Assembly (NCBI GenBank): GCA_043228905.1
Contig: JBHGNT010000016.1
Location: 6,944,001 to 7,008,000, forward strand
Direction of reading: 5' to 3'
Length of the DNA stretch: 64,000 nucleotides
Source: Azolla caroliniana
Taxonomy: Eukaryota; Plantae; Polypodiophyta
Positions 2,725 to 26,630 of this stretch are shown piece after piece (position 1 is the first letter of the stretch; each line of letters opens with the position of its first letter). Made by a program: the position numbers and the translations under genes. Below the pieces are notes generated by a model. That model made no database searches and was not told where the DNA came from. It saw nothing but the letters and a program-made list of their open reading frames with translations.

Positions 2725-3399
2725 TTGGCTCTCTCGATTCTATTGTCACTGTCTACTTTGTCTCCATCAGCAACTCCTCCTCTATACACCGTGAAGATCT
2801 TGGTTGGCAACCCTCTACAATATCGTTTTTCACGAAGAGAAACACCGGCAAAATCTGCACTCCATTGTTCTAAATCGCCATTGAAGTGAGCCAATTGGCT
2901 GCACTTCACTCCTGAAATTGTAGCCGCTCGAAATGAGATTCGCTTCACAAGCTATGCCTTAGCCGTACTACATTGGATTAGACAACAATCGAGTAGGTCA
3001 CCTGACGCTAGGCAATCGCTCGTCGTAATGACTCGTAGTAGTCTGGGCTCCAGGAACAACCCCTTTCTTTGCTTCATTCGGCTAGACAACATTCAAAAAG
3101 ATTTAGCTGAATCTGTTCTTCTCATTGTCGTAGTCACCTGAAGTAGGATTGGCCTGGATAATCAGGACATACGTTGTGTTTGAAAATCTCAAAAATCGAC
3201 ATTCAAAATCGAATCGACATACTCGGGTCCAACTCGACTAGGCTAGTCAACCGTAGTCACTTCGGATCGATCTCCCGAATTTCAAATTAGATTAGGCGTG
3301 TGTTCAAACTCGGCTAGAACAAATTCGGGTGAGCAATTTTGTTGCACCCAACCACTGTTCGTAGCCAACCCCGAACAAAGCCTCCCAAATTCGACACAG

Positions 3400-6300
3400 A
3401 TGGCATCAACATCCGGCTCGTCAAAGATGAGTCTAAGGAAGTTCGATGGATCAAACTTCAACTTCTGGAAGGAGTTGATGCAAGACTATTTAATAGTCAA
3501 GGGGCAAATTGACCCCATCGAAAACGAAAATGCTCCAAAAGGATACGAGCCCCTTGAATGGGAGAAGCACGACAGAATTGTCCAAGCTACTTTTCAGATG
3601 CACCTATCGGAGTTCGTGTACTTTACGGTGCAATCGTGTCCGACTGCTTTCCAATTATTGAAGACACTTTCGGACACTTATGAAAAGAAGATTTCCGTCA
3701 CGAAGATATATTTGATATGGCGCCTCTATAACCTTCAGATGAAAGAATCTGATTCGGTCCAGGCACACCTCAACGAGTACGAAAGTCTGAGCTACCAATT
3801 TCGGCTCAGGGGACGACTATCGAGGACGAACTAAGAGCAATGTTGCTTATGAGTACTCTCCCCCCTTCGTGGGAAACTTTCGTCACAACCGTGTGCAACG
3901 CATCGACTACGACTGTTAAATACTCCTCAGTCACGAGCGCAATTATGACTGAAGCAGCTCGGAGGAAATCATTTGCAAATGATTCGGCCAATAACGTGTA
4001 TGTAGTACAAGGTTCGACCAACCGATCGAACAACCGAGGAAGAGGTTCTTCACGACAGTCAAACAACCAGCGAAGTCGGAACAAGTTCCGGGATAATCGA
4101 GTCTGCAACTATTGCAAGAAACCGAACACATCAAAGATAGTTGTCGTGCGCTCAATGCCAGAAACGATAAGGCTCAACGAGCGGATCATAAGAGTGACCA
4201 GCATAAGGAGGTCAACTACGTCGGCTCTTTAACCGAAGTATTGTCGAACGACCCGAACATTCTATCCATTGAAAACCCAGTCGAATCAGAAATTCTGCTT
4301 ACGATTGAGGAATCGATCACATGGCTCTTGGATTCGGGTGCATCCTTTCATGTGACCCCTCATCAATCCCAATTTTGGCAATACTCAACCCGACACTCCG
4401 ACTCAGTTCGAGTCGGAAATTCGCAACATTGCGCGATTATTGGAATCGGCACAATAGAGCTCAACCTTCCGGGTGGCTCATTGGTACTACACAATGTCCG
4501 ACATGTACCTGAGCTCTCAAGACCCTTGATCTCAGTCGGACAACTGGATGAAGACGACATCGTGCCGGATTCTCATCATGAGGGTGGACACTCCACGAGG
4601 GGAACATCCTACTTGATCGAGGACCGAAAGTGCACTGATTGTACCAATTATATGTAACACTCAAAAAGGGTGACTTGTTCTTGGTAGACATTACCGTGTC
4701 ATCACTTTGGCATAGAGGACTCGGACACCTCAGCAAGGCCGGCATCACGCATTTATCTAGAGTCAGATACATCCCTAAACTCTCTTTCTCTGATCATCAA
4801 TTTGGCGAGCACTGCCAGTATGGCAAACAAATCGCAACCTCACACCCGACATCAGCACCGCGAGAATCGAGTCCGCTCGATTTGGTCCAGTCGGACATCT
4901 GTGGTCCCATGCCACATCAATCTCTCGGCGGTGCCTTGTATTTCGTTAGCTTTATTGACGACTCCACTTGGAAGGTGTGGGCGTACCCGAAAAAGACCAA
5001 AGATTGAGTGTTCTCGATTTTCTCCGATTGGCTCGCTATGGTCGAGAATCAGTCCGGCCGGAAACTGAAATGCTTTCGGACCGATAATGGAGGAGAGTTT
5101 AAATCTGAAGAATTCGTCAGATTCTGCCGACAACGCGGCATACGATGTGAATATACAGCACCCCACAGTCCGGAGCAGAATGGAATTGCCGAGTGGATGA
5201 ATCAGACAATTCAAGAAAGGATACTTTCCATGCTCCAACACTCCGGACTATCAGATGGCTTCTGGGCAGAGGCACTACTTACGACAATACACATAATCAA
5301 TATGTCGCCAAGTAGGCCTCTAGGACTTCGGATACCTCAAGAACTATGGAACGGTAGCAAGCCGAATTACGACAAGCTGAGGATTTTCGAGTGCGAGGCA
5401 TACACCCTCATACCAAAAGATGATCGCCGCAAACTTGCACCAAGGTCCAGGAAATGCATTTTCCTAGGTTATGGACCAGATGGAGAAATCGGCTACCGAC
5501 TTTGGGACCCCGAGCACAAATAGATCGTCCGAAGTTCAGACGTAGTGTTCAATGAGTCAGCCATGCATCAATCGGCCGAAAAACCGATCGAAGTCCAAAG
5601 GGTAATTTTTTCGGATGTGCCAACCCTTCGCGATGGCCCATCACACAACACAAGGTCAGCTTCACAGGTAGTCGAAACCTCTAATACCGACTCGGTAGCA
5701 CCCGACTCGGCACAACCGAATGTTTCGGCTTTGGACCATCCGACTTCGACACCCGATGCGACCAGTCCAGTCATACCTCGAAGATCCAAGAGATTGTCGC
5801 AACCCCCGGAGAGATACTCTCCTAGTATCTTCTTTACAAACGTTGGAGAACCAACGGCATACGAAGAAGCATCGGCATCAGCCGACTTGGCCACTTGGCA
5901 TCTGGCAATGGAGTTTGAAATGAACTCCATCAACGCAAACAAAACTTGGGACCTAGTCGAATTACCGAAGAATTGAAGTGCTCTTTCGTGCAAATGGGTC
6001 TATAGAATTAAAGAGATGTCTGATTCTGCCACCCCTAAATTCAAGGCCAGATTAGTTGCGAAAGGGTTTCGACAAGAATATGGCGTCGATTTCGACGAAA
6101 TTTTTTCACCAGTGATGAAAACGACAACCCTCCGCTTTATGCTCGGCCTCGTGGCAACCGAGAACTTGGGAGTTGATTCAGCTAGATGTCAAAACGACTT
6201 TCCTCCATGGTGATCTTAAGGAGGAAATTTATATGCAGCAGCCGAAAGGCTTTGTGGTATCCGGCCAAGAACATCTAGTCTACCGACTCAAGAAGAGTCT

Positions 6301-7257
6301 TTACGGCCTGAAACAGGCACCACAATGGTGGTATAAGAAGTTCGATGACTTCATTCAGTTGGTCAGCTTCTCGAAGAGCGATGAGGACCATTGTCTCTTC
6401 ACGAAAACAGCTTGAGATGGGTCATCCATCTTCCTCATCATCTACGTGGACGACATGCTTATCTCCGATCAGCAAGCCGGAGAGCTTGCTGAACTCGTTC
6501 GGCAACTATGGTTGAAGTTTGCCATAAAGGACCTCAGTCCGGCAAGACACATTCTCGGCATGAATATTAGTCTAAATCGAAATCGCAAACAATTGTTTCC
6601 GTCCCAATCCAACTATTTTGCCTGTGTCCTTGAACACTTCAACATGCAATCGGCTAAACCTGCTTCGACCCAGCTCCTCATTAGCCTTCAGGTGTCTCAG
6701 CGAGACTACCCAACATCCGGTTCAAAGGGGGACATTATGAAATCGGTACTGTATGCACCGGCAATTGGCTCCTTGATGTACGCGATGGTCGCAACACAGC
6801 CTGACATTGCTCACGTCGTAGGAGTCGTCAGCAGATTCATGCACAATCCCGGACGATCACAATGGAACACAGTAAAGCATGTGTTCAGATATCGGGTGGG
6901 CACATAAGACCTTGGCATTCTATTTGGCCCGAACGACATTGCAGGCATGGTCGGATACACCGACTCGGATTTTGCCGATTGTGTGGACAGTCGAAGATCG
7001 ACAACTGGATACTACTTTAAGTTCGGCAATGGAGCAATCTCGTGGAAATTGAAACTTCAGGAGTACACTGCCACATCAACGACTGAGGCAGAATACGTAG
7101 CTGCGTCCGATGCGGTGAAAGAGGCCTTATGGCTCGGTCGGTTGGCTTACACATTTCGACAAGTCAAATCCGACTCTGCTCTAGTTGTCTATAGTGATAG
7201 TCAGGGTGTTGTCGCTCTATCGAAAAATCTGGTCCATCACAACGCTTCGAACTACAT
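3400..7257 (+). pseudogene. Element B gag-pol pseudogene (gag, PR, IN, RT, RNase H); RNase H tail resumes at 25922-~26070
   Basis: KFDGSNFNFWK, CNYCKKP, WLLDSGASFH, RTDNGGEF, PEQNGIAE, KARLVAKGF, QLDVKTTFLHG, YVDDML, YTDSDFA; many stops and frameshifts. HNASNYI|DVRYH is split by the C insertion. Confidence 0.93.
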
Positions 7258-7355
7258 TGTTGAGAGACAAGCTCAACATTGGGAGCGTAAACAGGTGCGT
7301 AACCTAGTGCATAGACTGGGTGCATAAAACCGTGCGCTAAATATGGTCGTAGCGG

Positions 7356-7800
7356 TGTCGCGGTATTCCACAAGTACGTGTAAGATCTTAGGCGGGACCG
7401 CGGGGGTCTTGGACTAGGGAGTAGAGGGGGAATGGAAGCTTAGCTCGAGAGGAGAGGAGAAAGAATAGGACATAAACATAGAATGGATGGAGGCAAGATA
7501 CACAAACGAGTTATATTAAGAAACACCAAACGCTTTACAACCATGGTTGCATAGGCCGAACGAAAACATTATATGGAACCCTAACCGGATAAGTAAAGTA
7601 AAGAAGATGATGAAGAAGAAACCCTAAGAGAAACCCTAAACCTGAAATGGTATGAAGAAGAAGAAGAACAGTAAAACCCTAGACGAAACCCTAAAACCGA
7701 AATAGAAACCCTCGACCTAAGTGGTATACCTCTCTCACTCAAAATAGGCAACCCCCTCACAAGAGACCCCTCCCTTCCTTTTATAGCCCAAGGAGGGAGG
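7356..7800 (-). mobile_element. Truncated LTR fragment F inserted into C's 5' LTR; a deletion removed the rest of F, C's PBS and most of C's gag
   Basis: C's 5' LTR matches its 3' LTR only to ~7355. An unrelated sequence then begins TGTCGCGG, has a minus-strand TATA (CTATAAAA near 7780-7787) and AAACCCTA repeats, and joins abruptly to C's zinc knuckle at ~7801. Confidence 0.55.
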
Positions 7801-10148
7801 GAATGCTGGTATTGTAGCAAAAAAGGCCACATGGAGAGCGTGTGCTGGAAGAAGAGAGCCGATTCAGCTTTGTAGAAGAGACGCAAGAAGGCGTCAGAAA
7901 TCGCACTACGTTGAAGGCTCCGAACAAGTTGGAATTGGATCAGGCCCAGCCTTCGTAATGAAGCACAAGGTTAATTCGATGAACGTGAATACTTCAAAAT
8001 CGAACGAGGTGTGGTATGTTGATTCCGAAGCATCAAATCATATGACGAGTCATGAGGAATGGTTCTCGTACTCGGAGAAACCGGAAATGCAAGGAGTGGT
8101 CGAAACGGGAGACGACACTCCGCATACCATTGAACATGTCGGAGAAGTTCCTCTCAGTCACGTCGGGCAGAACGGGAAACTTATGAACGTGTTGCACGTC
8201 CCGACAATAACTAAGAACCTTTGACAAGGGGATGCAACTTTGATTCATGCACCTCGGGTGCTACATCGAAGAAGAAGGCAAAGTAATCACGCAAGGGCGT
8301 CGTGAAGGGAGGATGTTCATCCTCGACACCAACCAAGTCGGAACCCCACTGTTTGTGAAAGGACAGAAGGTCGAATCGGACATCGACCTGTGGCACAAGC
8401 GGTTCAGCCACGTTAACTTCCCACGGCTTGTGAAATGTAGACGAAGAATATTTTTTTCTAATTGCCGAAATTTCGGGGCCGTAATGGCCAAGTCTACGAA
8501 GCCTGCCAACTAGGGAAGCAGCACCAACTTCCATTCCCCAATGAGCGTAATCGTAGTCGAAATCCGTTGGATGTGATCCATTCTTATGTGTGGGAACCGG
8601 CACAGAACGTGAGTCTCGATGGAAGCCGTTACTTTGTAACCTTCATCGATGAGTTCAGTCGGCATACCTAGGCATGTACGATCGCAAAGAAGAGCGAAAT
8701 CTTCGCATGTTTCCTGAAGGTAAAGAACCTTGTAAAAAGGGAAACAAGACGTAGGATCAAATGCCTACGGTCCGATGGCAGGAACGAGTACTTCTCCGAC
8801 CAGTTCACGGGTTAGCTATAGAAGGAAGGAATTCGATGTGAATTCTCGTGTAGATACACGCCACAGCAGAACAGCGTGGCCGAGCGGAAGAATCGGACGA
8901 TCGAAGAAGCCGTCAGGGCAATGCTTGAAGAGAAGCATATGCCAAAGTTTTACTAGGTTGAAGCCGTAAAGACGGTTGTTTACTTGCATAATCGAACCTC
9001 TGCCAATGGAGGAGTGTCGCCACATGACCTGTATTTCGAAAAGAAGCCGAACTTGGCACACTTGAGGATTTTCAGCAGCATTGCATATGTGCATGTGCCG
9101 AAGCAGAAGAGGAGGAAGCTGGACTCCAAAGCCGAGAAGTGTATCTTGGTCGGCTATTCGGACAAGTAGAAGGGGTATAAGTGCTATAACCCCCGAACAA
9201 AGGAAGTTCGCGTATGCCGAGATGTCATGTTCGACGAGTCCGCTTCATGGTACTTTGCCTTCACCTCCAATACCTCATGATTCCATTCTGAATTCTGAAG
9301 AAGAGTTCAACGAGGCTGATATGCCTCTGCGTGATGAGGATATAGGATCTCTAAGAGAGAGTCCGATCTCATTTCGGCTAAGTGGGCCGAATGAGGGGTT
9401 GGGCTGAGATGGCCAACCAAATGAAGAATAGGCGAGTAGTGGAGACTCGACCGTGTTGTCCCCGCGTAAAGAACCAAGGAGACGGTTTATGCGTAAGAAA
9501 AAGGGACGTACAAAGTGTTAGAATACGATTTCGGCAGTGCCGAGTTAGATTGGAGCGAATCTGACTTTGGGCCAATCGAGAAGGAACCTCCATGGAAGGG
9601 GTCGAAATCGACCGAAAAGATTGTGAAATCGGGTGATCACGAATTACGTCGATCTACCCGCTTGAAGAACCCCGTAAAAAGATACGGGTACAATGAATAC
9701 ATGGCGCACCATTATGCCTACATGACACGAGTGGTGGAAGTGCGTGAGCCGGAGAGCTACGCAGAAGCGGCGGAAGACGCAAACGAGCGTGCCACGATGG
9801 AGGAAGGGATGTGTGCATTATCGGACAACGAAACTTTGGACCTGGTTGACGCACCTAAAGGTGTTAAGCCGATCGGATGCAGATGGGTTTTTAAGGTGAA
9901 ATACAACATAAACGGCTCGGTCAACCGATATAAGGCCCGGTTGGTTGCGAAAGGCTACGCGCAGAAGCACGACGTAGATTATGACGAGACCTTCGCCCCG
10001 GTCACGAAGATGACTACCGTGCGAGTTCTGCTAGCCGTAGCTACTGTCATGAACAGTACTGAGACAGAGAAGGAATTAGTACTAAACGAAGGATTAGTAC
10101 TATGAGAGGTGTGGAACTTCTTCGAGAGAAGGAAGAAGTGAGCGAGAC

Positions 10149-10201
<53 letters not shown>

Positions 10202-10488
10202 TGATAAGAAAGATATTTATTATATGAAGAGAATATACAACGGTGGCTAAAAGGCTTAAGACTGGCGTTGAACCAATTTGGTTCAACATAATGCCTAGTG
10301 CCCTCTTTTATAGTGTTTTCAGGAGTAATCCTGAAGCTTCTAGAATGTTCCAGAGAAATCTGGAATATACACTAATTTCCTATAATAAAATGTAAATGAA
10401 AATAATATCCTACGTATTACAATAGATGGTCTAATGGTCAAGAGCTCGACCCATATAACCTAAGGTCATGGGTTCGAGTCTTGCCATA

Positions 10489-13400
10489 TCATGACACTAT
10501 CCCCCCTTTAAAACGACGAGTGTCACGAGTCGTCTTGGATTGAGGACCCGGTTTGTGTGGATATTGACGATGGAAGTCTTCAAGAAGAGCACGAGCATTG
10601 GTTACATTCTCGATCGGTTCCCAAGTACGTTCGCTGGGACTATAGCCTAGCCAATCGACTAGATAGTAGAGCTTGTTGCGAACAATCTTGGAATCAAGAA
10701 TGGCGGCAACCTCGTACTCCGGCCCATCTTCAAGCTCGATCGGGGGTGGAGGTTGGATAAGACGTTCTGGGATGGTGCTCTCGTGGTAGGGTTCGAAGAG
10801 AGAACTATGAAACACCGGATGTATCCGAAGTTGAGGAGGTAGATCGAGACGAAAAGCAACATCATTAATCTTTCCAATAATACGGAAAGGACCTAATCGC
10901 CGATAATCCAACTTCTCACATGGGCGAGTAGTCTTGATGTGTCGTCGTAGCAACCACACCCGATCTCCAATATTAAAACTAGATGGAAGTTGATGACGAT
11001 CCGCGTAGACCTTGTGTGTTTGTTGAGCTTGCTGGAGATGAGTAGATAAATCCGCTTGTATCTTGCGTAACCGCTCCAAATGATCCTCTGCGCACGGATT
11101 TGTGGACACCTCTGGGGTTTCAAGTACACTCCACTGGGGGTGACATCCCGTATAAGCATAAAATGGCGTAACTTTAGTGGATGCGTGGATAGAGTTGTTA
11201 TAGGCAAATTCGGCGAAGTGGAGAATATCTGCCCAGTCATCCTGATGATAGCTGAGAAAGCACCGCAGATACTGCTCCAACGTTTGATTTGTTCGTTCAG
11301 CTTGGCCGTCAGTTTGTGGGTGGTAGCCGGAAGAGAGGTTACAAGTGACCTTGAGCATGTTAAAAAGGTGCTTCCAGAATTTTGACACGAACTGGGGTCC
11401 ACGGTCGCTGATGATACTATCGGGGAGTCCATGATGCCGACATACTTCACGCATGACAATTTCGGCAGTGTCTTCACTGGAGATCTCCTTAGTACATGGC
11501 AAGAAATGAGCCATCTTCGTATATCGATCGACCACCGTTAGAATCGCATTGAACCCCTTAGAGACTGGAAGATCTGTGATGAATTCTAGAGCAATGGATT
11601 GCCACGGCTTGCTTGGAATTGATAATGGTTCTAATAAACCATATGGATGATGCCTTGGCATTTTCGCTCTGCAACATGTATCACAAGTCCGAACAAAATC
11701 CTCGACAAATTGTCGCATACAAGGCCACCAAAATGATCGTTGTACTAAATGTAATGTTTTAGTACTACCAAAATGCCCAGCTGTATATGTGTCATGACAG
11801 TTTTGTACTACTCGAAGGCGGCAAGAACCATTAGGAACATACAAAATTTCTTTAAAGAAGAGTAATCCATCATGGTATTTGAATTGCCGATAGTCCGTAC
11901 CTGGTGGTTGCGACTGTGAACACGACGCTCGAGAGGGGTCAATTTGTGCTAGTATAGCTTGGGCGAACGCATCTGTCTTCAAGTCTTCACGTATGGTATC
12001 GATAACGCGGGAATCCATAGGCATGTCAAATATTTGTGTTGCTTGTAATCGTGCCGGTCCCAAGATGACTTGTTTTTGGTTATCGAAAGCTGGCTCGCCA
12101 GGACGGGGTGCTAGATACGAACGTCGTGATAATGCATCTGCCTTCCCTTGGTGCCTCCCCGGACGATATGTAATTTTGAAGTCGAAACGCGTGAGGAAGT
12201 GGGCCCACCAAGCTTGACGTCGATTCAACACACGAGCATCCTGAAAGTAGCCAAGATTCTTGTGGTCACTAAATACGGTGACTGGATGAGAGGATCCCTC
12301 CAGAAAATGCCTCCATTGCATAAAAGAATCCACTATTGCCAATAGCTCCTTATCATGGATTTCGTAGTTGATGTCGGCGGCATCAAACTTGCGTGAGTGA
12401 AAAGCCACAGGATGTAGCTTTTCATCATTCCCCTGTTGTGACAGAATGCTCCCTAATGCAAAATCCGATGCGTCAGCTTCGATAATGAATGATTTCTCCG
12501 GATCGACATGAGCTAGAATTGGAGCCGATGTAAATGCTTTTTTAAGACTCTCGAAAGCCATGTCCGTTTCTTCAGACCAGATGAACGGTTGTCCCTTCCT
12601 GGTAAGTTGTGTGAGAGGTAGAACGATCTTTGAGTAATCATGTATGAACTTCCAGTAAAAATTGGCAAAGCCTAAGAAGCATTGCACATCCCGTACCGAA
12701 CGCAAAGTCTGCCATTCTACCACCGTTCTGACCTTAGCTGGGTCCATGGAGATGCCTTCTGACGAAATGATGTAGCCGAGAAATTCCACTTGGTTGCACC
12801 CGAAACTACATTTTTCTAGCTTTGCATACAGACCATGTTCTCGAAGTCGTTTTAGTACTAATAGTACATGAGAATCATGTTCTTCTTGGGTCTTTGAATA
12901 AACCAGTAGATCATCCAAATAGATGATCAAACAATCATCCAATAGATCTCGGAATATATCATTATCCATGTGCTGGAAGACTGCCGGCGCATTAGTGAGG
13001 CCGAACGGCATGACAGTATACTCGAAGTGCCCATATCTGGTGCGAAACGCGGTCTTCCATTCGTCTCCTGGTCGGATCCGTACGAGGTTATATGCTCCCC
13101 GTAAGTCGATCTTCGTGAAGAACCTGGCACCATTGATCCGTTCTAAAAGACTTGAGATAAGGGGAAGAGCATACCTATTCCTGATTGTAACCTTATTCAA
13201 GCCACGGTAATCTACAACGAGACGAAGCGATCCATCTTTTTTCTTGACGAAGAAAATGGGCGCACCGGTTGGAGATTTCGAATGCCGAATGAAACCATTT
13301 TCCAAATTCTCCTCTATATAGGCCCGAAGGACTTCCAGCTCGGTTGGTGACAAATTGTAGATCGGTCCCCATGGCGGCTCTTTTCCCGGTTGTAAATCGA

Positions 13401-14085: not shown

Positions 14086-16223
14086 TCTTCTTCTAACTGA
14101 CTAAGGACATCAAATTTGTTTGCTAGATCTGGGATATTAGTACTATTAGGACTATCAGATATCCCTACTGAAATAGGCTCGGATTTAGTACAATTAGAAC
14201 TAGCGACTATTTGGTTTACCTGTCTTCTTGGCCTATGGGGGCAATTTATTGCGATATGTCCTGGTCCACCGCAGTAAAGACATAGTCGATTTGTACGGCG
14301 TCGCTGCTTTTCTTCTTCGGATAATGGCCCTCGACGACGTGTAGTGTCAATCTCCATCGGAGTCGGAGTATTCGCTGGAGACGAATTATATGACTCCCTC
14401 GGAAAAGGTCTTGCTACCACTGAGGCGTAGGTGGGCTCTGATCTTGCCCTCGGCATCTGTAACTGTCGTTCCGAACGTCGCTCAAAGAGGCGGTTGTCAC
14501 ATCTCACCGCGCGACTGATTGCTTCTGTTAAGGACTTTGGCTCTTCGGGGAAGGTCAAGAGTAAATCCTTGACGTCGTTGCGTAAACCATAACGGAATTG
14601 CTCCATCAACGCTTGATCATCCCAATGGATATCGGCGGCCAGTAGGCGAAAATCTGCAGCGTATGCGGAGGCTGGACGGTCACCTTGGCGTAATCGCCGG
14701 ATTTTGTTGATTGCGGTCCTGATGCTGTCAGTATCTCCGAAACATGCTTTAAACTCACCTAGAAACTCTTCAAAATTGTTGAGTAACGGAGATTCCTTTT
14801 CTAATAGTGGAGCGAACCATGACAACGCTGAGCCACTTAACAAAGTGCCTACTAAACCCACTCGTGATGCATCGGTGGGATATCGGGAAGGATGCATTTG
14901 AATAACTAATCGTACCTGGTTAAGGAACCCTCTAAACTGCGATCGCGTTCCATCGAACTTCGTGGGAAGGCCAATCTTAGGTTCTTTATGAATCCCTTGT
15001 GTTCCAGGCCCATGTTGTTGCATCGCTACGATGGTGGCTTCGAGTTGTTGCACGCTGTCGTGACGTGGCTCGCCTAGAAGCGTAGCGTTGCGCACACAAA
15101 GGATAACGTGAAAGTGAGGAAGGAATCACAGGGATTATGGACGGAAGAGACGAAAGAGTAGAGATAGAGTGAATAGAGATCAATAAGATATGACAAAATA
15201 GGATTTTTAAGGAATATAAGATAAGACAAGATAAGATATAAAATAATATATGAGAAAGTGTATGAAATTTGTAATCATTTTCATGAAAGAGTTACAAAAT
15301 GATTGTGCACGTCGTTGAACCTCCGAACTTTGTCTTGCAAGGTAATCGCTCTTCTCTTTCTTGATCGTAGACCACTACAATCTTCACTTCAATATTTTGA
15401 TGAAGATAAGGCTCGAACTGCCTCCCTCTTGTTGAGAGTTGACCACCACGACCGCCAAGCTAGAGCTCCACCTTTATCTTGAACTTCTTCCTTTCTTTCT
15501 CTATTTTATGGTATCTCTTATGTAATATATATTTGATTGATATCTCATACCTATCTCCCTTTGATCTTCTCTTTCACCATTTAAATAGGTGCCCCCATGC
15601 ATATGATGCATTGGAGGGTACAAATCATGCATGTAGTGCATGAAATGCATGTGATGCATGATCGCCATTTGGCGTTCATGTATTACATGTGATGCATGAT
15701 AAACATCTCGCTCATTTGAGCTTTTATGTATGAAACAATATATGCAATAACAATAAACATGAAAACATAATCTTAAAGAGAAAGGGCCTATCCTAATGGT
15801 AGGTGTGTCAACTTTGGTGTATGAGGTTGTGGGTTTGAGTCTCAAAATGCTATTGAATACAACATACAACTTTATTTTTATATCATGAAGCAAATCCTTT
15901 ATGTAATATAAAGTATATATAAAGTATGCTTTATTTTATGTATATTACTAGTATAGAGTAAATGGTAAGATTTGAGAGTCATAGGGTGGGGTTATTGGTT
16001 CAAGTCCTCTCTTGTTCGTGTAATATAATATATTTATCTATATATATATATTATTTTTCTTTACATATATATAATATTATCATATGTGTTGTTAACATTA
16101 TATAAAACATTATCAAATGTTATTTTAGTTACGTATTTATCTTATTGTAGACTTTTAATGTGAAGCTTTCGTACTTCACGACATCCACCCCCTCTAGACC
16201 TGCACATCCTCCGGCATGTGCCA

Positions 16224-16808
16224 CTATCTTTCATCTTCATGTTGATCTATTTGAGGAGGTTCAAGCTCAAACCTTTTCTTAAATACTTTTATCCTCTTTC
16301 CAGCTACCACGTTTAGGATTAGTGTCCCATCCAATTCACTAAGCTTATAAGTAAAGTTATCATATACTTTTCTTACTATATAAGGCCCAAACCATCTTTC
16401 AGCGAACTTGCGGACGGTGCTATGTTGATTATCTAAACTGCTATCATACACGAGTACCCAATCTCCTTCTTCTATTTTCTTAGGTCGAATTCTATGACTT
16501 TTATCAAAACGGATTTTATTCTTTAGTCGAGCCTCCTTCAATCGTTGGGCTGCTATTTCTATATCTTCAGGTCGACGCTCTAATTGTTGAATTCGCAAAG
16601 CAAGCAATTCTTCTCTGCTCACCTCTTCTCTCCATGGAATAGATATCCATGACATAATTGATTCTTCTATCGGCATGATGGGCTTTTGGCCAAGTATCAA
16701 TTCAGCTGGCATGTATCCTGTTACTGAACTATGAGTTGTTCGATCCGCCCATAGTGCATAAGGTAGCATGCGTGGCCAATCTCTTATTTTACCTTTACAG
16801 CTTTTCAC
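16224..16808 (-). pseudogene. Element E integrase C-terminal part, out of frame because of a short deletion
   Basis: WPRMLPYALWADRTT...WFGPY; frame break at ERGHSPI|VKSC. Confidence 0.85.
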
Positions 16809-19678
16809 CTTATTGGGCTATGTCCTCTTTCAATCTTTCCATTGGCTTCTGGATTATACGCAGTTGTAAGTGATAATTTGACCCCTATTCGGCTGAAGAA
16901 TTCTCTAGCTTCATCAGAATCGAGTTCTCCTCTATCTGCAATTATTTTACCAACACACCCGTAACGACATATTACATCTTCTAACAAAAATTTACATACA
17001 GCTCTAGTTGTTTTTTGTCGTAGTGGTCTTCCTTCTACTTGGTTTGTAAGGTCTTCTCTTGCTAGTACTAAATATCGCATTTGACCTTCCCCAAGTGGCA
17101 TTGTCACTAAATCAACCATCCATTTATAATGCATTGATGATGAATATGTTGGTTTTAGCTCATCTCGATACCGGATAGTTGAATATCTCTGGCAAACCTC
17201 ACAGGTTTCCACAAATTTCGTTACATCTTTATACATATGTGGCCACCAATACTTTTCTTTCAACTTCATAAATGTCGCCCATATGCCTCTATGTCCTGCC
17301 CACAAACTATCATGGAATTCATTAAATAATTTTCTCTTAATGTCATCCTTACAAATGACTCGAAGAGGATTCTCGATTGGCCTTTTTGGACGCCTCCATA
17401 AATGCCCTTCATGTAAAAAAAACTTGAATGCTCGTCTTCGAAATTCATTTAATTGTTTCTTTGACCATGATGGGTTGGCTTCTTGAGTCTTTAGAAAATT
17501 TCCTATTTCTAACCATTGACCTTCATACTCTGTGTCTTTGAACATTATACTTACATAAAACTCATCATGAGGCGTAATAGATTCTTGATGAGCAAATTGA
17601 TGGCTTGTAGTTGCCCAGTACTTATCTTCAGTTTGCATCACCTTTTCATTTATGAACCTTGCCCTTGACAGCATATCTGCAACTGGGTTGTCTTTTCCTT
17701 TTATATGCCGCAATTCTGGGTTCATGGTTCTGATGTATGCAATCCACCGAAGCATTGCAATATCTGGTGTCGTGCAACTTGCTATCATTCCAATGAGTGG
17801 CAAACAATCTGTTTCAACCACTACATCTGCTCCGATCAAGTAATCTCTATCTGTTTTTAATGCAGTAAGCAAACCCCACAATTCTCGTTTAACTTGTGCA
17901 TAGTTTCTTTGTCTTTCATTTAATATCTTTGCTCCAAATCTGATAGCATATCGATGTTGGTCTTCATCTTCTTGGTTGATAACCCAACCGATCCCGATTG
18001 GGCTAGTATCAACTGTTACTATAATTGGTCTTTCACCTTTGTAGTCTGGTTGACGAAGAACTGGTGCTTTCAGTAATTCTTCTTTCAACTGTTGAACAAC
18101 TTGTGTATGTTCATCAGTCCAAATAAACTTCTTTCCTTTTCTTAAAAGTTGGTAGAGAGGATCTGAGACATGTGCAAAGTGTGGTAACCAAATATGATAA
18201 AACACACATGCACCCAAAAATCTTCTCACCTCTGTTACCGAGTCGCAAACTTCCTTCATATTTTGTATTGCGTTAATTTTGATCGGTGAAGGCTTCCTCC
18301 CATACCACCCACACATATGACCAACTATTAGAACTTCGTTTTGCCCAAAGCAAGACTTTGTTCCTGATAGTGTCAAATGTACCTGCTCAAGCTTATTTAA
18401 AATACTTTCACAGTCATTAATGTGATCCATCACAAACTTTCTGCAACCATTTCCAACCATAGTCTCATCTTTCTCTCTTTCTAAGCATCCCTTTATAGGA
18501 ATATCATCTAAAAATGGCATAGTTACCTTTGGGATGTATTCATGTAGAACTTTGTTCATTGCATTCATCATATGAGCAACTGAATTCGTCGCACCTTGAG
18601 GTAGAGTGCACATTCGAACCAACCCAATTGGTGTTTTCATTGTTGTGATGTTGCGACTATCAATTGCTAGTTGAAATTGGTCGTATCCTGAATATAGGTC
18701 TCCCATAGAGTAAATCGCTCTTCCAGCAAACGCTTCCGCAAATTCATCAACGATCGGTCCGATTCCCACATTTCGGATTGTGACTTTGTTGACTGGTTGT
18801 AGATCTTGAATGAATCTTAGAGAACCATCTTTCTTTGGAACTGTGAACCATCTATTGGAGTATGGTGCATTTGAAGGCTCTAAAATCTTCATCTTGACTT
18901 TATCCTTCAACAGCTCCAACAATTGAGGTAATCGAGCTCTCGGTACTGCAATAGGTTTAAAATTCCAAGGAATATGAGGGATAGTAAATATTACCATTGG
19001 CGTCACCACCTTTGGATTTACACAACCAATCTCCTCAGCTTTGAATGCGAACGCTTTCCCATGCCTAAAGATCATTTCTTTGAAAGTTGCGATCTCTGAT
19101 TGCAGAAGAAATTCACCCCTTCCGATTCTCAAGTTATTTATTGTCTCCGAAGTGAAGTGATGTCCAATCTTCTCTATTGGTCGAAGCATAGGCTCAGTTG
19201 CTGCTGCCTCCATCTTCTCTTCACTACCAATAGGTAATGGTACTGCAGCAGGTTTGACCTTTTTATCTATTGTTTTGTATTTTGTATTACATAAACTTTC
19301 TACTTCTTCATATTTACAATTATACCTATCAATCTCATAATACATATCAATTGAGTTTACATGTATCTTTCTAACATTCTCATCATCTTCTTTCAAATAC
19401 ATTTCTAACTCTTCTAAAGTATTTGCAAAAGAAATTTCTTCCATAACACTTTCAATCTGCTCTTCCATTTCAAGTACTCCATTATCCTTCAATGCCTGCT
19501 GAAACAGATTAGCATTCTTTTTCAAGTTCCTCTTGCATTCATACATCCTAGTCACACATATAGCACCACTTTCAGAAACATGAAATGACTTATTCATATG
19601 TTGTAATGCCCTATATGAGGGTCTTTTAATAATGGGACTATTGCAACCCTCACGCGCAACAGTCCTAGTCAAAAACCT
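16805..19678 (-). CDS. pol: Element E RT-RNase H-integrase ORF (+1/-2 frame relative to gag-PR)
   Basis: LPQGATNS, FLDDI, VDTSP, HHCC zinc finger, WMVDLV, IADRGE, EANGKIERGH. Confidence 0.9.
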   Translation of the reverse strand, partial: RFLTRTVAREGCNSPIIKRPSYRALQHMNKSFHVSESGAICVTRMYECKRNLKKNANLFQQALKDNGVLEMEEQIESVMEEISFANTLEELEMYLKEDDENVRKIHVNSIDMYYEIDRYNCKYEEVESLCNTKYKTIDKKVKPAAVPLPIGSEEKMEAAATEPMLRPIEKIGHHFTSETINNLRIGRGEFLLQSEIATFKEMIFRHGKAFAFKAEEIGCVNPKVVTPMVIFTIPHIPWNFKPIAVPRARLPQLLELLKDKVKMKILEPSNAPYSNRWFTVPKKDGSLRFIQDLQPVNKVTIRNVGIGPIVDEFAEAFAGRAIYSMGDLYSGYDQFQLAIDSRNITTMKTPIGLVRMCTLPQGATNSVAHMMNAMNKVLHEYIPKVTMPFLDDIPIKGCLEREKDETMVGNGCRKFVMDHINDCESILNKLEQVHLTLSGTKSCFGQNEVLIVGHMCGWYGRKPSPIKINAIQNMKEVCDSVTEVRRFLGACVFYHIWLPHFAHVSDPLYQLLRKGKKFIWTDEHTQVVQQLKEELLKAPVLRQPDYKGERPIIVTVDTSPIGIGWVINQEDEDQHRYAIRFGAKILNERQRNYAQVKRELWGLLTALKTDRDYLIGADVVVETDCLPLIGMIASCTTPDIAMLRWIAYIRTMNPELRHIKGKDNPVADMLSRARFINEKVMQTEDKYWATTSHQFAHQESITPHDEFYVSIMFKDTEYEGQWLEIGNFLKTQEANPSWSKKQLNEFRRRAFKFFLHEGHLWRRPKRPIENPLRVICKDDIKRKLFNEFHDSLWAGHRGIWATFMKLKEKYWWPHMYKDVTKFVETCEVCQRYSTIRYRDELKPTYSSSMHYKWMVDLVTMPLGEGQMRYLVLAREDLTNQVEGRPLRQKTTRAVCKFLLEDVICRYGCVGKIIADRGELDSDEAREFFSRIGVKLSLTTAYNPEANGKIERGHSPIR

Positions 19679-21839
19679 GATTATCAAAATCATCACAGTC
19701 TTTTGGTATTAAATGATCACGAAGCTCTTGCTTGTTCCTCTCATGATTTGGGCGAACTGTCATAAATTGTACAGTTCGTCGTCCATCTTGGCTACGGATT
19801 TTCGCATAGGCAGAACCATTGTCGAGGACTTTGGTCTCCATTCGTACCGCTGTAATGTATGGTTGCCCTAGGATTATTGGATAGGTAGATCCTTCCTGCA
19901 CAAAGAAATGTTGATCTACCTCTATATCACCAATAGTAACCTTTACATTTGGGCATGCACCAAATAAATCTTCTGTGACTGATGTGGCAGCTTTTACTCG
20001 CCAACCATGTTGAGTATCAATTGGCCATCTACCTTTCCTGTAAAAATCAGCACTCATTATATTTATTTCAGAACCATGATCAATAAGTGCCATCACGGGG
20101 TCTGGAACATTTCCAATCTTCACATGATGCTCAGTAGTGGCTCTTGCCCAACATTTGCGAGAGTAATGGCTTCTTACATCTGTTGAATTTATCATTGAGG
20201 TTGATGCATGTTGAGAGTCAACAACGATATTGTTTGACTCGTTGCTCACCACTTCATATGCCACCTTCGGATTTGTCTCTTTAACCTGCTCATTTACTTG
20301 CTTCTTTCTTCGCACAATATCAATTATTTCATCATGAAATTCCTTTTTTGCAATACCTAACACTTCTCTTAGTGTAAATTCTACTCGACTGTCTAGTATT
20401 CTTGTTTCTAAAACTTTCTTTAAATCTGTATCCTTTTCAATATCAGACATTAATTTGAATGAAGGACCAGATTTACCTTTTTCAACTTTTGCGTCCATCT
20501 CTTTTCTTTTGCTTTCTCTTGTTTCATGCTTTTTGGTTGAGCCAATCTCATCATCCGATCTTTTCCTTTTTTCTTCCACTATCACCTCATGCTCTTGGTG
20601 TTCTGCCATCTGAGCATAGACCGTCATAGCATCTACTGGAACATCCCATCCAGTGTTTTTCCTTACAGAATCTCCGGCAACACGAAGGTCTTCCATCTTC
20701 ATCTTTTGCTTTTGTGCGGTACTTACAACCTTCTCCCAGAATGGTGATCGGGATGGCATGTCATCGAGGCGCACCCCTGCCGTTGCCGAGTAGTACATTG
20801 CGGAAGCCTTCTTTGCTTCAGCTTCTTCAAATTTAACCTTAACACCACCATCACCAAAGTTCTTTGTAAGTGGACTTCTAGTTTCAGTTAAATAAATGTT
20901 ACCATTTTTCCAATACACCAAGTCTCGATTTTCCATGTCTTTATATTCCGCACAATCACGTAATCGATGTTCGAGGCTATCACACCACATGCATCGAGGT
21001 CGAAATGGTTCCCTTGACCTCGAAGTCTGACCATTCTCAAGCTTTGCCACTTTAATTGTTAGATCTTTCATACTTTGAACTAAATCATCAAGCAAAGACT
21101 CACTCTTAGTTTCGATCATTTCTCGTGGTTGATGGACCATTTCGTGTGATGGTTCTTGACCAAGTCTTTGAACTTCGATGTTTTGCTCAAGCCGATTTGT
21201 GATTCCCACATGTGGTATTTGTAGCATTGCACCATTCCTTTGCATTCTTTTCATAAATTTATTACAAGCATTTGTTACCTCATTCCAATCTGCAGTTATA
21301 CCATCCTCAGTATTTGGTACTTCAAGCATGAATTCCAATTCTTTTCTATATCTCTTGTCAACTGCCTGCAAAAATAAAGCAACCTTTTGCCAAGACAAAG
21401 AATTTCTTTCTTCTGGCTTTAGGTGTCCATACATCCTATCAAACTCTTTTTTTGTGTCAGACACAGATAACCCTTTATCTTCTTTTAAGATCCATTCATG
21501 AAATGAACGCATAGTAACTCGAGAGAAATCCTCACGAGCATATTCAGACACAAGTGCTTCTTTGAATGCATTCCAATCCAAACTATGCAATGCTTGTATT
21601 TCATGAATTCTATCTCTTAATTCCATGTCCACTAATTTATAAAAGTTTGCTATCATATTGACATCATTTATACCAAACATTTCCATTTCATCATAATATA
21701 TATTCACATACTTCGAAATATTTGTGCCATCAAACATACCAATCTTCTCTCGGACTTCTCGTAAGGCATGAAATAATCGATCTTGATTCAACTTTTCAAT
21801 AAACAACATTACCGGATCCATTGTACTCGTACTTGCCAT
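19665..21839 (-). CDS. gag: Element E gag-protease ORF
   Basis: Open ~725-codon ORF with FDGTNIS, knuckle CMWCDSLEHRLRDC and aspartic protease-like ALIDHGSEINIM...IILGQP. Confidence 0.9.
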   Translation of the reverse strand: MASTSTMDPVMLFIEKLNQDRLFHALREVREKIGMFDGTNISKYVNIYYDEMEMFGINDVNMIANFYKLVDMELRDRIHEIQALHSLDWNAFKEALVSEYAREDFSRVTMRSFHEWILKEDKGLSVSDTKKEFDRMYGHLKPEERNSLSWQKVALFLQAVDKRYRKELEFMLEVPNTEDGITADWNEVTNACNKFMKRMQRNGAMLQIPHVGITNRLEQNIEVQRLGQEPSHEMVHQPREMIETKSESLLDDLVQSMKDLTIKVAKLENGQTSRSREPFRPRCMWCDSLEHRLRDCAEYKDMENRDLVYWKNGNIYLTETRSPLTKNFGDGGVKVKFEEAEAKKASAMYYSATAGVRLDDMPSRSPFWEKVVSTAQKQKMKMEDLRVAGDSVRKNTGWDVPVDAMTVYAQMAEHQEHEVIVEEKRKRSDDEIGSTKKHETRESKRKEMDAKVEKGKSGPSFKLMSDIEKDTDLKKVLETRILDSRVEFTLREVLGIAKKEFHDEIIDIVRRKKQVNEQVKETNPKVAYEVVSNESNNIVVDSQHASTSMINSTDVRSHYSRKCWARATTEHHVKIGNVPDPVMALIDHGSEINIMSADFYRKGRWPIDTQHGWRVKAATSVTEDLFGACPNVKVTIGDIEVDQHFFVQEGSTYPIILGQPYITAVRMETKVLDNGSAYAKIRSQDGRRTVQFMTVRPNHERNKQELRDHLIPKDCDDFDNQVFD

Positions 21840-21883
21840 GTTGATGTTGATCTTCACTTTAGATGTCTCTTCTACTTCCCCGT

Positions 21884-21901
21884 TTCACGTCGGGTTCACC
21901 A
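21884..21901 (-). promoter_or_regulatory. Primer-binding site (tRNA-Trp) of element E
   Basis: The plus strand reads TTCACGTCGGGTTCACCA, matching the 3' 18 nt of plant cytosolic tRNA-Trp(CCA) as recalled; 5-nt spacer to the LTR. Confidence 0.85.
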
Positions 21902-24900
21902 AATTGTGTCGTGACGTGGCTCGCCTAGAAGCGTAGCGTTGCGCACACAAAGGATAACGTGAAAGTGAGGAAGGAATCACAGGGATTATGGACGGAAGAG
22001 ACGAAAGAGTAGAGATAGAGTGAATAGAGATCAATAAGATATGACAAAATAGGATTTTTAAGGAATATAAGATAAGACAAGATAAGATATAAAATAATAT
22101 ATGAGAAAGTGTATGAAATTTGTAATCATTTTCATGAAAGAGTTACAAAATGATTGTGCACGTCGTTGAACCTCCGAACTTTGTCTTGCAAGGTAATCGC
22201 TCTTCTCTTTCTTGATCGTAGACCACTACAATCTTCACTTCAATATTTTGATGAAGATAAGGCTCGAACTGCCTCCCTCTTGTTGAGAGTTGACCACCAC
22301 GACCGCCAAGCTAGAGCTCCACCTTTATCTTGAACTTCTTCCTTTCTTTCTCTATTTTATGGTATCTCTTATGTAATATATATTTGATTGATATCTCATA
22401 CCTATCTCCCTTTGATCTTCTCTTTCACCATTTAAATAGGTGCCCCCATGCATATGATGCATTGGAGGGTACAAATCATGCATGTAGTGCATGAAATGCA
22501 TGTGATGCATGATCGCCATTTGGCGTTCATGTATTACATGTGATGCATGATAAACATCTCGCTCATTTGAGCTTTTATGTATGAAACAATATATGCAATA
22601 ACAATAAACATGAAAACATAATCTTAAAGAGAAAGGGCCTATCCTAATGGTAGGTGTGTCAACTTTGGTGTATGAGGTTGTGGGTTTGAGTCTCAAAATG
22701 CTATTGAATACAACATACAACTTTATTTTTATATCATGAAGCAAATCCTTTATGTAATATAAAGTATATATAAAGTATGCTTTATTTTATGTATATTACT
22801 AGTATAGAGTAAATGGTAAGATTTGAGAGTCATAGGGTGGGGTTATTGGTTCAAGTCCTCTCTTGTTCGTGTAATATAATATATTTATCTATATATATAT
22901 ATTATTTTTCTTTACATATATATAATATTATCATATGTGTTGTTAACATTATATAAAACATTATCAAATGTTATTTTAGTTACGTATTTATCTTATTGTA
23001 GACTTTTAATGTGAAGCTTTCGTACTTCACGACAACGCGTAACGCAAGTTCCCCATGTTGTTGTTGCGTTTGCTGCTTTTCTAAGGAGATTTGTTGAAGA
23101 TCCCCCAGCAACCGTTGGTTTTCTTGTTCCAAAGCATGGAACTTCTCCTTCAAGCATTGGAATTCCGAGAAAACAGATTGATATTCTTCAGCGCTAACAG
23201 TGGCCATGGGATGAAAGAAAAGAGGAATAAAAGATTAGTAGGAAATGAGAGAGACAGAAGGTAGGCAAATTGGTTCAAACTGTCATGAACAGTACTGAGA
23301 CAGAGAAGGAATTAGTACTAAACGAAGGATTAGTACTATGAGAGGTGTGGAACTTCTTCGAGAGAAGGAAGAAGTGAGCGAGACAGAGAGAAAGAGAGAG
23401 AGAGAGAGTGTGTGTGTGTGTGTGTGTGATGATAAGAAAGATATTTATTATATGAAGAGAATATACAACGGTGGCTAAAAGGCTTAAGACTGGCATTGAA
23501 CCAATTTGGTTCAACATAATGCCTAGTGCCCTCTTTTATAGTGTTTTCAGGAGTAATCCTGAAGCTTCTAGAATGTTCCAAAGAAATCTAGATTATACAC
23601 TAATTTCCTATAATAAAATGTAAATGAAAATAATATTCTACGTATTACAATAGATGGTCTAATGGTCAAGAGCTCGACCCATATAACCTAAGGTCATGGG
23701 TTCGAGTCTTGCCATATCATGACAGCTACGGCGAAGGGGTGGAATCTACATCTGATGGATGTAAAGAATGCTTCCTGCAAGGTGATCTTGAGGAACAGGT
23801 GTACATGGTACAACCCCCCTGATTTTTATCCGAACAGAACACTTCGGCAGTCTGCCGATTGAAGAAGGCATTATATAGACTTAAGCAAGCCCCACGAGCT
23901 TGGAACATGAAGATTACCCAATGGTTGTGTAGAATGCGGTTTACGACGTCCAAATTTGACTCTTTGTTGTTCGTTCGGCAAGGTCGACATGGACCGGTTT
24001 GTCTTTTACTTTATGTTGATGATTTAGTCATCGTTGGTGCCGACCTGGAATAAATCTGCCATGTCAAGTCTCAGCTCGCGGCGTCTTTCGAAATGAAGGA
24101 TCTTGGAGACCTTCATTACTTCCTCGGGATTGAAGTGATCCATTCCCCCAAACGCATATTCATCAGTTAGCGTCATTACGGGCTAAATATGTTCTTCAAA
24201 TTCGGGATGGCAGATTGTAAGCCCATCTCGACCCCTTTGGATAGAAATGTAAAGCTTTGCCGAGATTCGGGAAAGGCGTGCGACCCGACACGGTTTCGAC
24301 TGATTGTTGGAAGCCTCATCTACTTGACGATCACTCGGCCAGACTTGAGCTATCTGGTCGGAATGGTCAGTCAATTTATTTCACAACCCATGACTAAACA
24401 CCTTCAGTGCACGCAAAGGATATTACAATATGTCAGCGGCACAAAAGACATGGCGTTGTTGTATCGTGCAAACGTAGCTGAGCAGTCGGTCAGCTACATG
24501 GATGTCGATTGGGCCGGAAATGCCCACGATCATAGGTCCACATCCGGATACGCATTCTCATTGGGAAGTGTGGCGATTGCGTGAACCAGTAAGAAGCAGC
24601 TGACAATAGTGTTGTCGAGCACGGAAGCCGAATATCGAGGGGCGACTGTCACTACGTGCGAAGTCATTTGGCTAAAACGGCTATTACAGGATCTACAAGT
24701 AGAAGTGTCCGATCCAACGACAATCTACTACGACAACCTCAGCAGCATCCACCTTTCGAAAAACCCTGTATACCATGCTCGGACCAAGCACATTGAGGTG
24801 CACTACCATTTTGTTTGCGAGCGTGTCCTTTCTGGTGAAGTCGAACTGGCATATGTTCTGACATGTCGGTAGCTTGCCGACATCTTCACCAAGCCCCTTG

Positions 24901-26301: not shown

Positions 26302-26630
26302 TGTTGAATGAGGGTCTCTAATGGACGTATTCACACTGTCTCCCTTTGTACACAGTAAGTTTAGGCTATTTATGTAAATAGTGAGAAGGGCAGTTGTCCT
26401 AAGTTAGTCAGTATATAAACTGACCTTGTAACCTAGTTTAAGGTTGGTTAAAAGTGGGTGAAATATAATTTGCCTTGTGCCCAATCGTTTCTCTCTCTTG
26501 CGTTATTGATTGATCTTGTTGATTGGTTCGGTCTCTAGTTGCCATCAATATTCTTCATTACTTCTGTTAACGATCTCCTCATGGAAGAGTGTTGAGTTTG
26601 TTCCGCACTTAGACGGCTACGTCCTCAACA
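26302..26630 (+). repeat. Element B 3' LTR
   Basis: Repeat of 2379-2710, preceded by the PPT. Confidence 0.95.

Follow-up and report, generated by a model that had tools for sequence, protein, structure and literature searches.

We analysed 64,000 nucleotides (nt) of Azolla caroliniana DNA (contig JBHGNT010000016.1, positions 6,944,001 to 7,008,000 of the forward strand; hereafter the window), which contains a young Gypsy long terminal repeat (LTR) retrotransposon of 7979 base pairs (bp) on the minus strand (15056-23034). Its first open reading frame (ORF1), for Gag and an aspartic protease (PR), overlaps a long ORF for reverse transcriptase (RT), RNase H (RH) and integrase (IN) that lies in the +1/−2 frame, and the mRNA at the junction reads CAG GUU UUU GAC UAG. 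The junction features are given below; L001 and L002 are two relatives from metagenome contigs.

19665..21839, minus strand: ORF1, gag (DUF4100, matched at 26.8 bits, slightly below the Pfam cut-off of 27.9) and aspartic protease (DHGSEIN, assigned by its D-x-G motif), 724 amino acids (aa) from the first ATG, ending QVFD*
16805..19672, minus strand: pol in the −2/+1 frame, with a linker of ~130 aa, RT, RNase H and the N-terminal part of integrase; frame broken near 16,810
19678-19671, minus strand: slippery octamer AG_GUU_UUU, read directly and identical in L001 and L002
19670-19666, minus strand: 5-nt spacer GACUA (6 nt in the −1 relatives)
19665-19655 with 19645-19635, minus strand: predicted pseudoknot stem 1, GGACUGUUGCG with UGCAAUAGUCC, 11 bp including two G-U, from pseudoknot search and covariation
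Within the stem-1 span 19665-19635, minus strand: loop 1, CG (2 nt), together with the 5′ strand of stem 2
19652-19646 with 19622-19616, minus strand: predicted stem 2, UGAGGGU with ACCCUCA, 7 bp, from pseudoknot search and helix scores
19634-19623, minus strand: loop 3, 12 nt

Re-reading the minus strand reproduced every coordinate that an earlier note on this DNA had given for the octamer, spacer, stems and loops, and its account of the frames also held. The ORF1 stop is the UAG at 19667-19665, and the spacer supplies the G and A of a −1-frame UGA (19671-19669) as well as the U and A that open the UAG, so that the −1 frame ends immediately after the site. Readthrough of the UAG was rejected because it yields only 4 codons before a UGA. 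Between the shift site and the start of RT there are 0 stops in the −2/+1 frame, compared with 11 and 25 in the other two. Judged by frame alone, ribosomes would have to move either +1 or −2, and we infer the direction from further features considered below. The pseudoknot search scored the window junction at 44, against a maximum of 34 over 529 random positions in the same loci. Folding of the stem-1 hairpin relative to shuffled sequences gave z scores of −2.7 and −3.1 in two short windows and just −1.3 in a 141-nt window. Judged by sequence and conservation, we consider the junction to be a real, conserved recoding signal.

To place this junction among its relatives, we searched an alignment of 49 homologous Gag-PR proteins against metagenome contigs, which returned 172 relatives; we retained the best 80. 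In 64 of these 80 loci both the protease and the start of RT were present, with pol in the −1 frame in 61 and in the +1/−2 frame in three (L001, L002 and L064); L064 is decayed, its frame being open only from 202 nt beyond the stop, and was set aside. After removal of duplicates, 47 distinct junctions including the window remained, and 43 of them had pol in −1, with heptamers G_GAU_UUU (38), G_GAU_UUC (2), G_GGU_UUU (2) and G_GUU_UUC (1); locus L066 had no heptamer. All three junctions with G_GUU_UUU (window, L001 and L002) had pol in −2/+1 and a 5-nt spacer. In an alignment of 35 junctions (A2), stem 1 starts 6 nt past the heptamer in 32/32 rows with pol in −1 and 5 nt past it in 3/3 rows of the other frame. 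The gag-protease/RT junction of the −1 relatives has the textbook anatomy of −1 frameshifting, with a heptamer, a 6-nt spacer and an H-type pseudoknot. A scan of viral contigs for further relatives found 8 stretches that matched a pattern, 0 of which were confirmed.

Gag-PR homologs mostly end in DF, or DF and a few residues, 27-48 residues past a fixed protease motif. Among 398 stored proteins screened, 308 carried the protease tail motif (the sets include near-duplicates): 164 ended in [DGN]F, 64 in [DG]F plus 1-9 residues and 11 in VF plus 0-2, while 35 ran on and 34 were of other types. A protein search at 50% clustering widened the homolog set, without DNA. The earlier note had remarked that the shift falls after the protease rather than before it; this holds, but as a trait of the whole clade and not of the window site in particular, and we regard the clade-wide −1 signal after the protease as a finding in its own right.

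Both stems are supported by comparison across the clade. In stem 1, 10 of 12 pairs showed changes on both sides, with a covariation of 0.384 compared to 0.228 after shuffling (0/500 shuffles) and at most 0.158 in controls slid along the sequence. For stem 2, the mean helix score was 16.1, compared to 13.6 with partners swapped (0/300). A relaxed pseudoknot search matched 40 of 46 junctions with a median score of 37, and five of the six misses were types whose stems are visible in alignments (L015, L032 and L040 in A2). The predicted H-type pseudoknot of the window junction is the same element as that of the −1 sisters.

We then considered the branch in which pol has left the −1 frame. The window, L001 and L002 share the junction CAG GUU UUU (G/U)AC UAG and formed one branch in a quick 35-row tree, with a Shimodaira-Hasegawa-like approximate likelihood ratio (SH-aLRT) support of 100; the tree was midpoint-rooted with no outgroup, 11 of 46 distinct junctions were dropped for short RT and L064 was excluded. 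Over 5.6 kb, L002 and the window share 77% DNA identity, and the branch therefore amounts to two independent families, and no more. From the shift site, pol runs for 1152 residues in L001, as a single reading frame unbroken by the integrase defect of the window copy, and for 1099 residues in L002. Between the window and L002, linker differences at codon positions 3/1/2 numbered 49/21/19 over 131 codons when read in the −2 frame, and the linker aligned with the pol of −1 relatives from its first codon (LTRTV...GCNSP versus LDRTI...GYNSP). Given that the linker is open only in this frame, shows third-position bias and aligns with relatives, pol appears to be selected as a protein whose start lies at the junction, and this speaks against an intron as well as against a dead signal. 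The linker (19600-19290, ~130 residues) also carries the motifs GA, EExSFxxT and VNSxxMY, conserved clade-wide, and had no Pfam match between shift site and RT.

The earlier note had cautioned that loss of a single U from a U6 run, by mutation or assembly error, would produce this arrangement from an ordinary −1 signal. To examine the error part, we aligned contigs from 8 of 22 listed sequencing runs of several organisms; the first four gave 178, 328, 288 and 71 contigs (85% likeness, 3% share) and the second four (organisms C-F) gave 23, 10, 20 and 3 (80%, 1%), and what follows holds among the variants listed. Across the contigs of all 8 runs we found no indel at the U5 run, several of them at depths of 600-2400. 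A single indel was listed for the first four runs, of one base at 19468 and confined to a contig from one of the runs, and one record (X7, record 22) covers 19418-19803 with 2 substitutions and no gap. No small indels were found in the second four runs, where single contigs span the site gap-free at depths of 624, 2431, 705 and 37. The main variants within the structure were loop-1 changes, a G-U to A-U change at 19655, a U-A to U-G change at 19616 and opening of the last stem-1 pair (19645/19655). Joints at 19618-19686 (X13) and 19666-19699 (X16) were considered as splicing and rejected, being low-depth divergent DNA contigs without GT-AG ends. Run X20 was classed as probable DNA. Protein ends agree, with QVFD in six other stored proteins (P0004, likewise 724 aa, and five cluster members), QVFY in two and KVFD in one. 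A second frame break in the same copy, in integrase, would fit an error or private mutation, but L001 and L002, from independent assemblies, have the same frame at the site, and we consider this explanation effectively refuted because the change is old and fixed in two families 77% identical in DNA. The caution was partly right, as the site does seem to have come from a −1 signal that lost one base net; the ancestral site was, however, apparently G_GAU_UUU and not a U6 run. On the sister-copy comparison that the earlier note had proposed (U5 against U6, frame of pol, covariation in both stems), neither run contigs, L001 and L002 nor the clade alignment brought a refutation: the sisters keep U5 and the −2/+1 frame and both stems covary, which supports its idea of a pseudoknot-driven −2 shift, with the choice of −2 over +1 as an inferred step.

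We propose that the Gag-protease-Pol fusion of this branch is made by a pseudoknot-driven programmed −2 frameshift derived from a −1 signal, a reading to which we assign a probability of about 0.68. The sequences themselves show how the frames are laid out, that this layout is conserved in two families, that the spacer is one base shorter than in the −1 relatives and that both stems covary. Under this proposal, most ribosomes would terminate Gag-PR at the UAG (QVFD*). Held up by the predicted pseudoknot 5 nt downstream, ribosomes would pause on AG_GUU_UUU, and a minority, with tRNA-Val on GUU and tRNA-Phe on UUU, would slip −2 into the open pol frame, leaving Phe fully re-paired on UUU and Val unpaired on AGG. 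The product would read QVF-LTRTV..., in register with DF-LxRTI... of the −1 relatives. Ribosomes slipping −1 would stop at once (window and L001) or after 5 codons (L002) and would release an almost normal Gag-PR. The signal probably arose from the clade's G_GAU_UUU/6-nt/pseudoknot arrangement when the A changed to U or was lost, with one base fewer overall. In one route, A-to-U would have been followed by loss of a spacer base, and L041 (1253-1326), with G_GUU_UUC, a 6-nt spacer and pol in −1, is a possible model of the intermediate, its RT being too short for the tree. In the other, loss of the A of GAU in a junction like that of L077 would at once produce the new heptamer, the new frame and the 5-nt spacer.

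Four considerations favour −2. The octamer is that of the virus causing porcine reproductive and respiratory syndrome (PRRSV), where AG_GUU_UUU or GG_GUU_UUU is reported to give 20% −2 and 7% −1 shifting, the latter with an immediate stop (PMC7618472, PMC4937337), in agreement with the parallel drawn in the earlier note. GUU replaces the GAU of the clade, so that the A-site tRNA-Phe can re-pair on UUU at −2. The pseudoknot, which serves backward slips in the clade, sits one base closer, and as the earlier note had stated, a shorter spacer favours −2: with an engineered U6A site and a stem-loop or the infectious bronchitis virus (IBV) pseudoknot, the −2 optimum is reported to lie at a spacer 1-2 nt shorter than that for −1 (Lin, Gilbert and Brierley 2012, PMC3458567). 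Finally, the G after UUU in the high-copy window family spoils re-pairing at +1, where tRNA-Phe would land on UUG, and is neutral for −2.

Several points weigh against this reading. After a −2 slip the P-site tRNA-Val pairs 0/3 (AGG), compared to 2/3 at −1 (GGU) and at +1 (UUU). As reported, the −2 slip of PRRSV needs a protein complex and has no RNA structure, −2 slippage on U6A was inhibited when its first U was changed (PMC3458567) while the window site has only U5, and G_GUU_UUU by itself is a −1 site in cardioviruses. L041 retains pol in −1 with GUU in its heptamer. The last stem-1 pair is open in X16, X20 and L001, and a low-depth subfamily in X16 (depth 46 compared to 2431) has AUU for GUU and two stem-1 mismatches; its contig also has UAC for GAC and is still in frame. 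The integrase frame of the window copy is broken, and the −2 families found number only two. Contigs lose rare variants, and the covariation shuffles and swaps take no account of relatedness. Because the tree is quick, midpoint-rooted and without outgroup, and places the branch at an open basal fork, derivation from −1 rests on parsimony.

A +1 frameshift would read the same pol frame with one residue fewer, and we judge it improbable. The frame is identical for both movements, P-site re-pairing is 2/3 at +1 against 0/3 at −2, and L002 has UUU_U, which allows perfect re-pairing at +1. Antizyme is reported to alternate between +1 and −2 by host and spacer (PMC3458567), and in plants, the split gag/pol elements that were known by 2003 carried a +1 pol (PMC5009743). 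Beyond the landing on UUG in the window family, however, the A site holds neither a stop nor an obvious hungry codon, and the UAG overlaps stem 1, so that the knot would already be open by the time ribosomes read the UAG. Both stimulator and geometry probably descend from a backward-slip signal, and the F-L-x-R-T register of relatives is preserved by −2.

Separate synthesis of Pol, with internal initiation or termination-reinitiation using a pol-frame AUG shortly upstream of the Gag-PR stop, would suit the AUG at 19693 in the window and one ~17 nt ahead of the stop in L002; but these AUGs differ in position and are readily created by xAU-G where tails are Asp/Asn-rich, retention of G_GUU_UUU and the pseudoknot would be left unexplained, and unfused Pol would lack the usual route into the particle. 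We regard this course as distinctly unlikely. Joining at the RNA level, by splicing from AG|GUUUUU as in Ogre or by transcriptional slippage on the U run, is to us very unlikely: AG|GU does resemble a 5′ splice site, but the linker is open over its full length, shows protein-like evolution in the pol frame and has its homolog at the N-terminal end of pol in the −1 relatives, and the ORFs here overlap where those of Ogre are separated by non-coding DNA. U5 is also a short run for slippage. We give still less credence to a dead −1 site in a family without Pol of its own, whose copies would be made in trans by −1 relatives. Since the window copy combines identical LTRs with a broken integrase, some copies may be mobilised in trans; nevertheless, the long pol frames of L001 and L002, the third-position bias of the linker between families 77% identical in DNA, and stems that are both kept or compensated all speak against a dead site.

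Comparison with known systems clarifies which features of the proposed −2 frameshift are shared. PRRSV nsp2TF has RG_GUU_UUU, a stop directly after the site in −1 and a product in the −2 frame, as the window does. It is described as using no RNA structure and depends on a C-rich CCCANCUCC motif with nsp1beta and poly(C)-binding protein (PCBP) ~10 nt downstream (PMC4937337, PMC7618472, PMC11818727), whereas the window junction does not show this arrangement; stem 1 of the covarying pseudoknot, 5 nt downstream, occupies the position of CCCANCUCC, and the product is the essential retrotransposon Pol. The U6A reporters resemble it in their structure-driven backward slip (here 5 nt compared to 6 nt in sister elements), but are artificial and assayed in reticulocyte lysate (PMC3458567), while the window site is natural, U5 and from a plant. 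Trichomonas vaginalis virus 1 (TVV1) is reported to make a capsid-polymerase fusion by −2 at xUU_UUU, with the polymerase of its sisters TVV2-4 in −1; it differs in being a double-stranded RNA virus, in a site unlike that of its sisters (C_CUU_UUU versus G_GGC_CCY) and in that the available text names no pseudoknot (PMC3622925). The window branch, in contrast, would have retained the same stimulator through the switch between −1 and −2. The 43 sister junctions are built like a canonical retroviral-type −1 frameshift and share their pseudoknot with the window junction, which likewise has a slippery heptamer and a 3′ pseudoknot within 5-9 nt; the canonical case differs in that the shift here falls after the protease, making Gag-PR the main product, and in that pol of this branch is not in −1. 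The non-coding intron between ORFs that marks Ogre-type elements is absent, the ORFs overlapping and the linker being coding. The signal thus appears to resemble a retroviral pseudoknot frameshift without being −1, and to share the site of the arteriviruses without sharing their stimulator.

The remaining features of the element are as follows.

21907..23034, minus strand: 5′ LTR, 1128 bp, TG...CA (ends read), 100% identical to the 3′ LTR over 1128 nt
15056..16183, minus strand: 3′ LTR, 100% identical to the 5′ LTR
23035..23038, second copy at 15052-15055, minus strand: target-site duplication GCGT, 4 bp, NCGN type
21885..21901, minus strand: primer-binding site starting TGG, 5 nt past the LTR (sequence read), putatively of tRNA-Trp type
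16224..16817, minus strand: C-terminal part of integrase, in a different frame in the window copy
16184..16195, minus strand: polypurine tract

No tRNA gene was found within the window. The integrase frame break near 16,810, in a copy with 100% identical LTRs, would reflect a local error or else an insertion that is defective and very recent. Pfam matches to RVT_1, RT_RNaseH, Integrase_H2C2 and rve (rve below its cut-off) gave the order PR-RT-RH-IN, with no Chromo match in P0002 or P0003. Named homologs come from Physcomitrium, Riccia and Adiantum, the Physcomitrium proteins being ~60% identical over the protease region. The Phygy clade of Neumann 2019 (PMC6317226), a group of non-chromovirus Ty3/Gypsy elements, is described with a 4-bp NCGN duplication, lengths of 7656-9968 bp, no chromodomain and Physcomitrium homologs. 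With its GCGT duplication, 7979 bp and PR-RT-RH-IN order without a chromodomain, the window element fits a Phygy-type assignment. A tRNA-Trp primer-binding site is a further Phygy trait, and the TGG-starting site here may be of this type. That survey lists the ORF organisation as not determined and treats the clade as Physcomitrella-specific, whereas the window element has homologs also from Riccia and Adiantum and a layout of GAG-PROT / frameshift / RT-RH-INT.

The insertion point of the element lies within gag of another Gypsy element, one that bears a chromodomain; this host is Tcn1-like by domain layout and has LTRs at 10043-10496 and 23279-23724 that are 95% identical. Pol of this host chromovirus is in −1 relative to gag, with G_UUA_AAC directly ahead of the gag stop (14085-14030, minus strand), then a 6-nt spacer and an 11-bp hairpin with a UAGG loop that could pair with a downstream CCUA; this junction is likely a second −1 frameshift signal. 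Both Gypsy elements, with copia-like remnants (3247-10105), lie between a repeat pair (2379-2710 and 26302-26630, 92% identical), forming nested insertions over 2379-26630.

In the literature searched, we found no report of Phygy frameshifting or of a −2 shift in a retrotransposon; subscription papers and Repbase reports lay largely outside the search, so that the −1 signal may have been noticed before. The word "frameshift" is absent from PMC2864245 and PMC10508981. As far as their available text goes, a 2016 review names phage Mu, arteriviruses and TVV1 as −2 users and gives split gag/pol, as of 2003, in only two plant element types, both +1 (PMC5009743), and a 2025 review lists arteriviruses and antizyme in yeast for −2 (PMC11818727). 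In the sources as available, the arterivirus −2 shift is protein-driven, and structure-driven −2 slips were demonstrated only in engineered or foreign-host settings. We lean, on balance, towards regarding the window signal as the first natural pseudoknot-driven −2 frameshift and the first in any retrotransposon: a −1 signal retuned by a pseudoknot one base closer and a change from G_GAU_UUU to AG_GUU_UUU, within an apparently undescribed clade-wide post-protease −1 frameshift.

Together with its −1 sisters, the window element offers a matched pair from nature, with the same pseudoknot, spacers of 5 and 6 nt, and GUU in place of GAU, so that the determinants of slip direction become testable by a two-change swap. 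If the proposal is true, the −2 branch would be a natural test of the mRNA-tension model. For Phygy elements, the proposed route of Pol expression is a classical −1 signal after the protease, one not listed for plant retrotransposons in the available text of the 2016 review (PMC5009743), and annotation pipelines would mis-score such frameshifts as decay.

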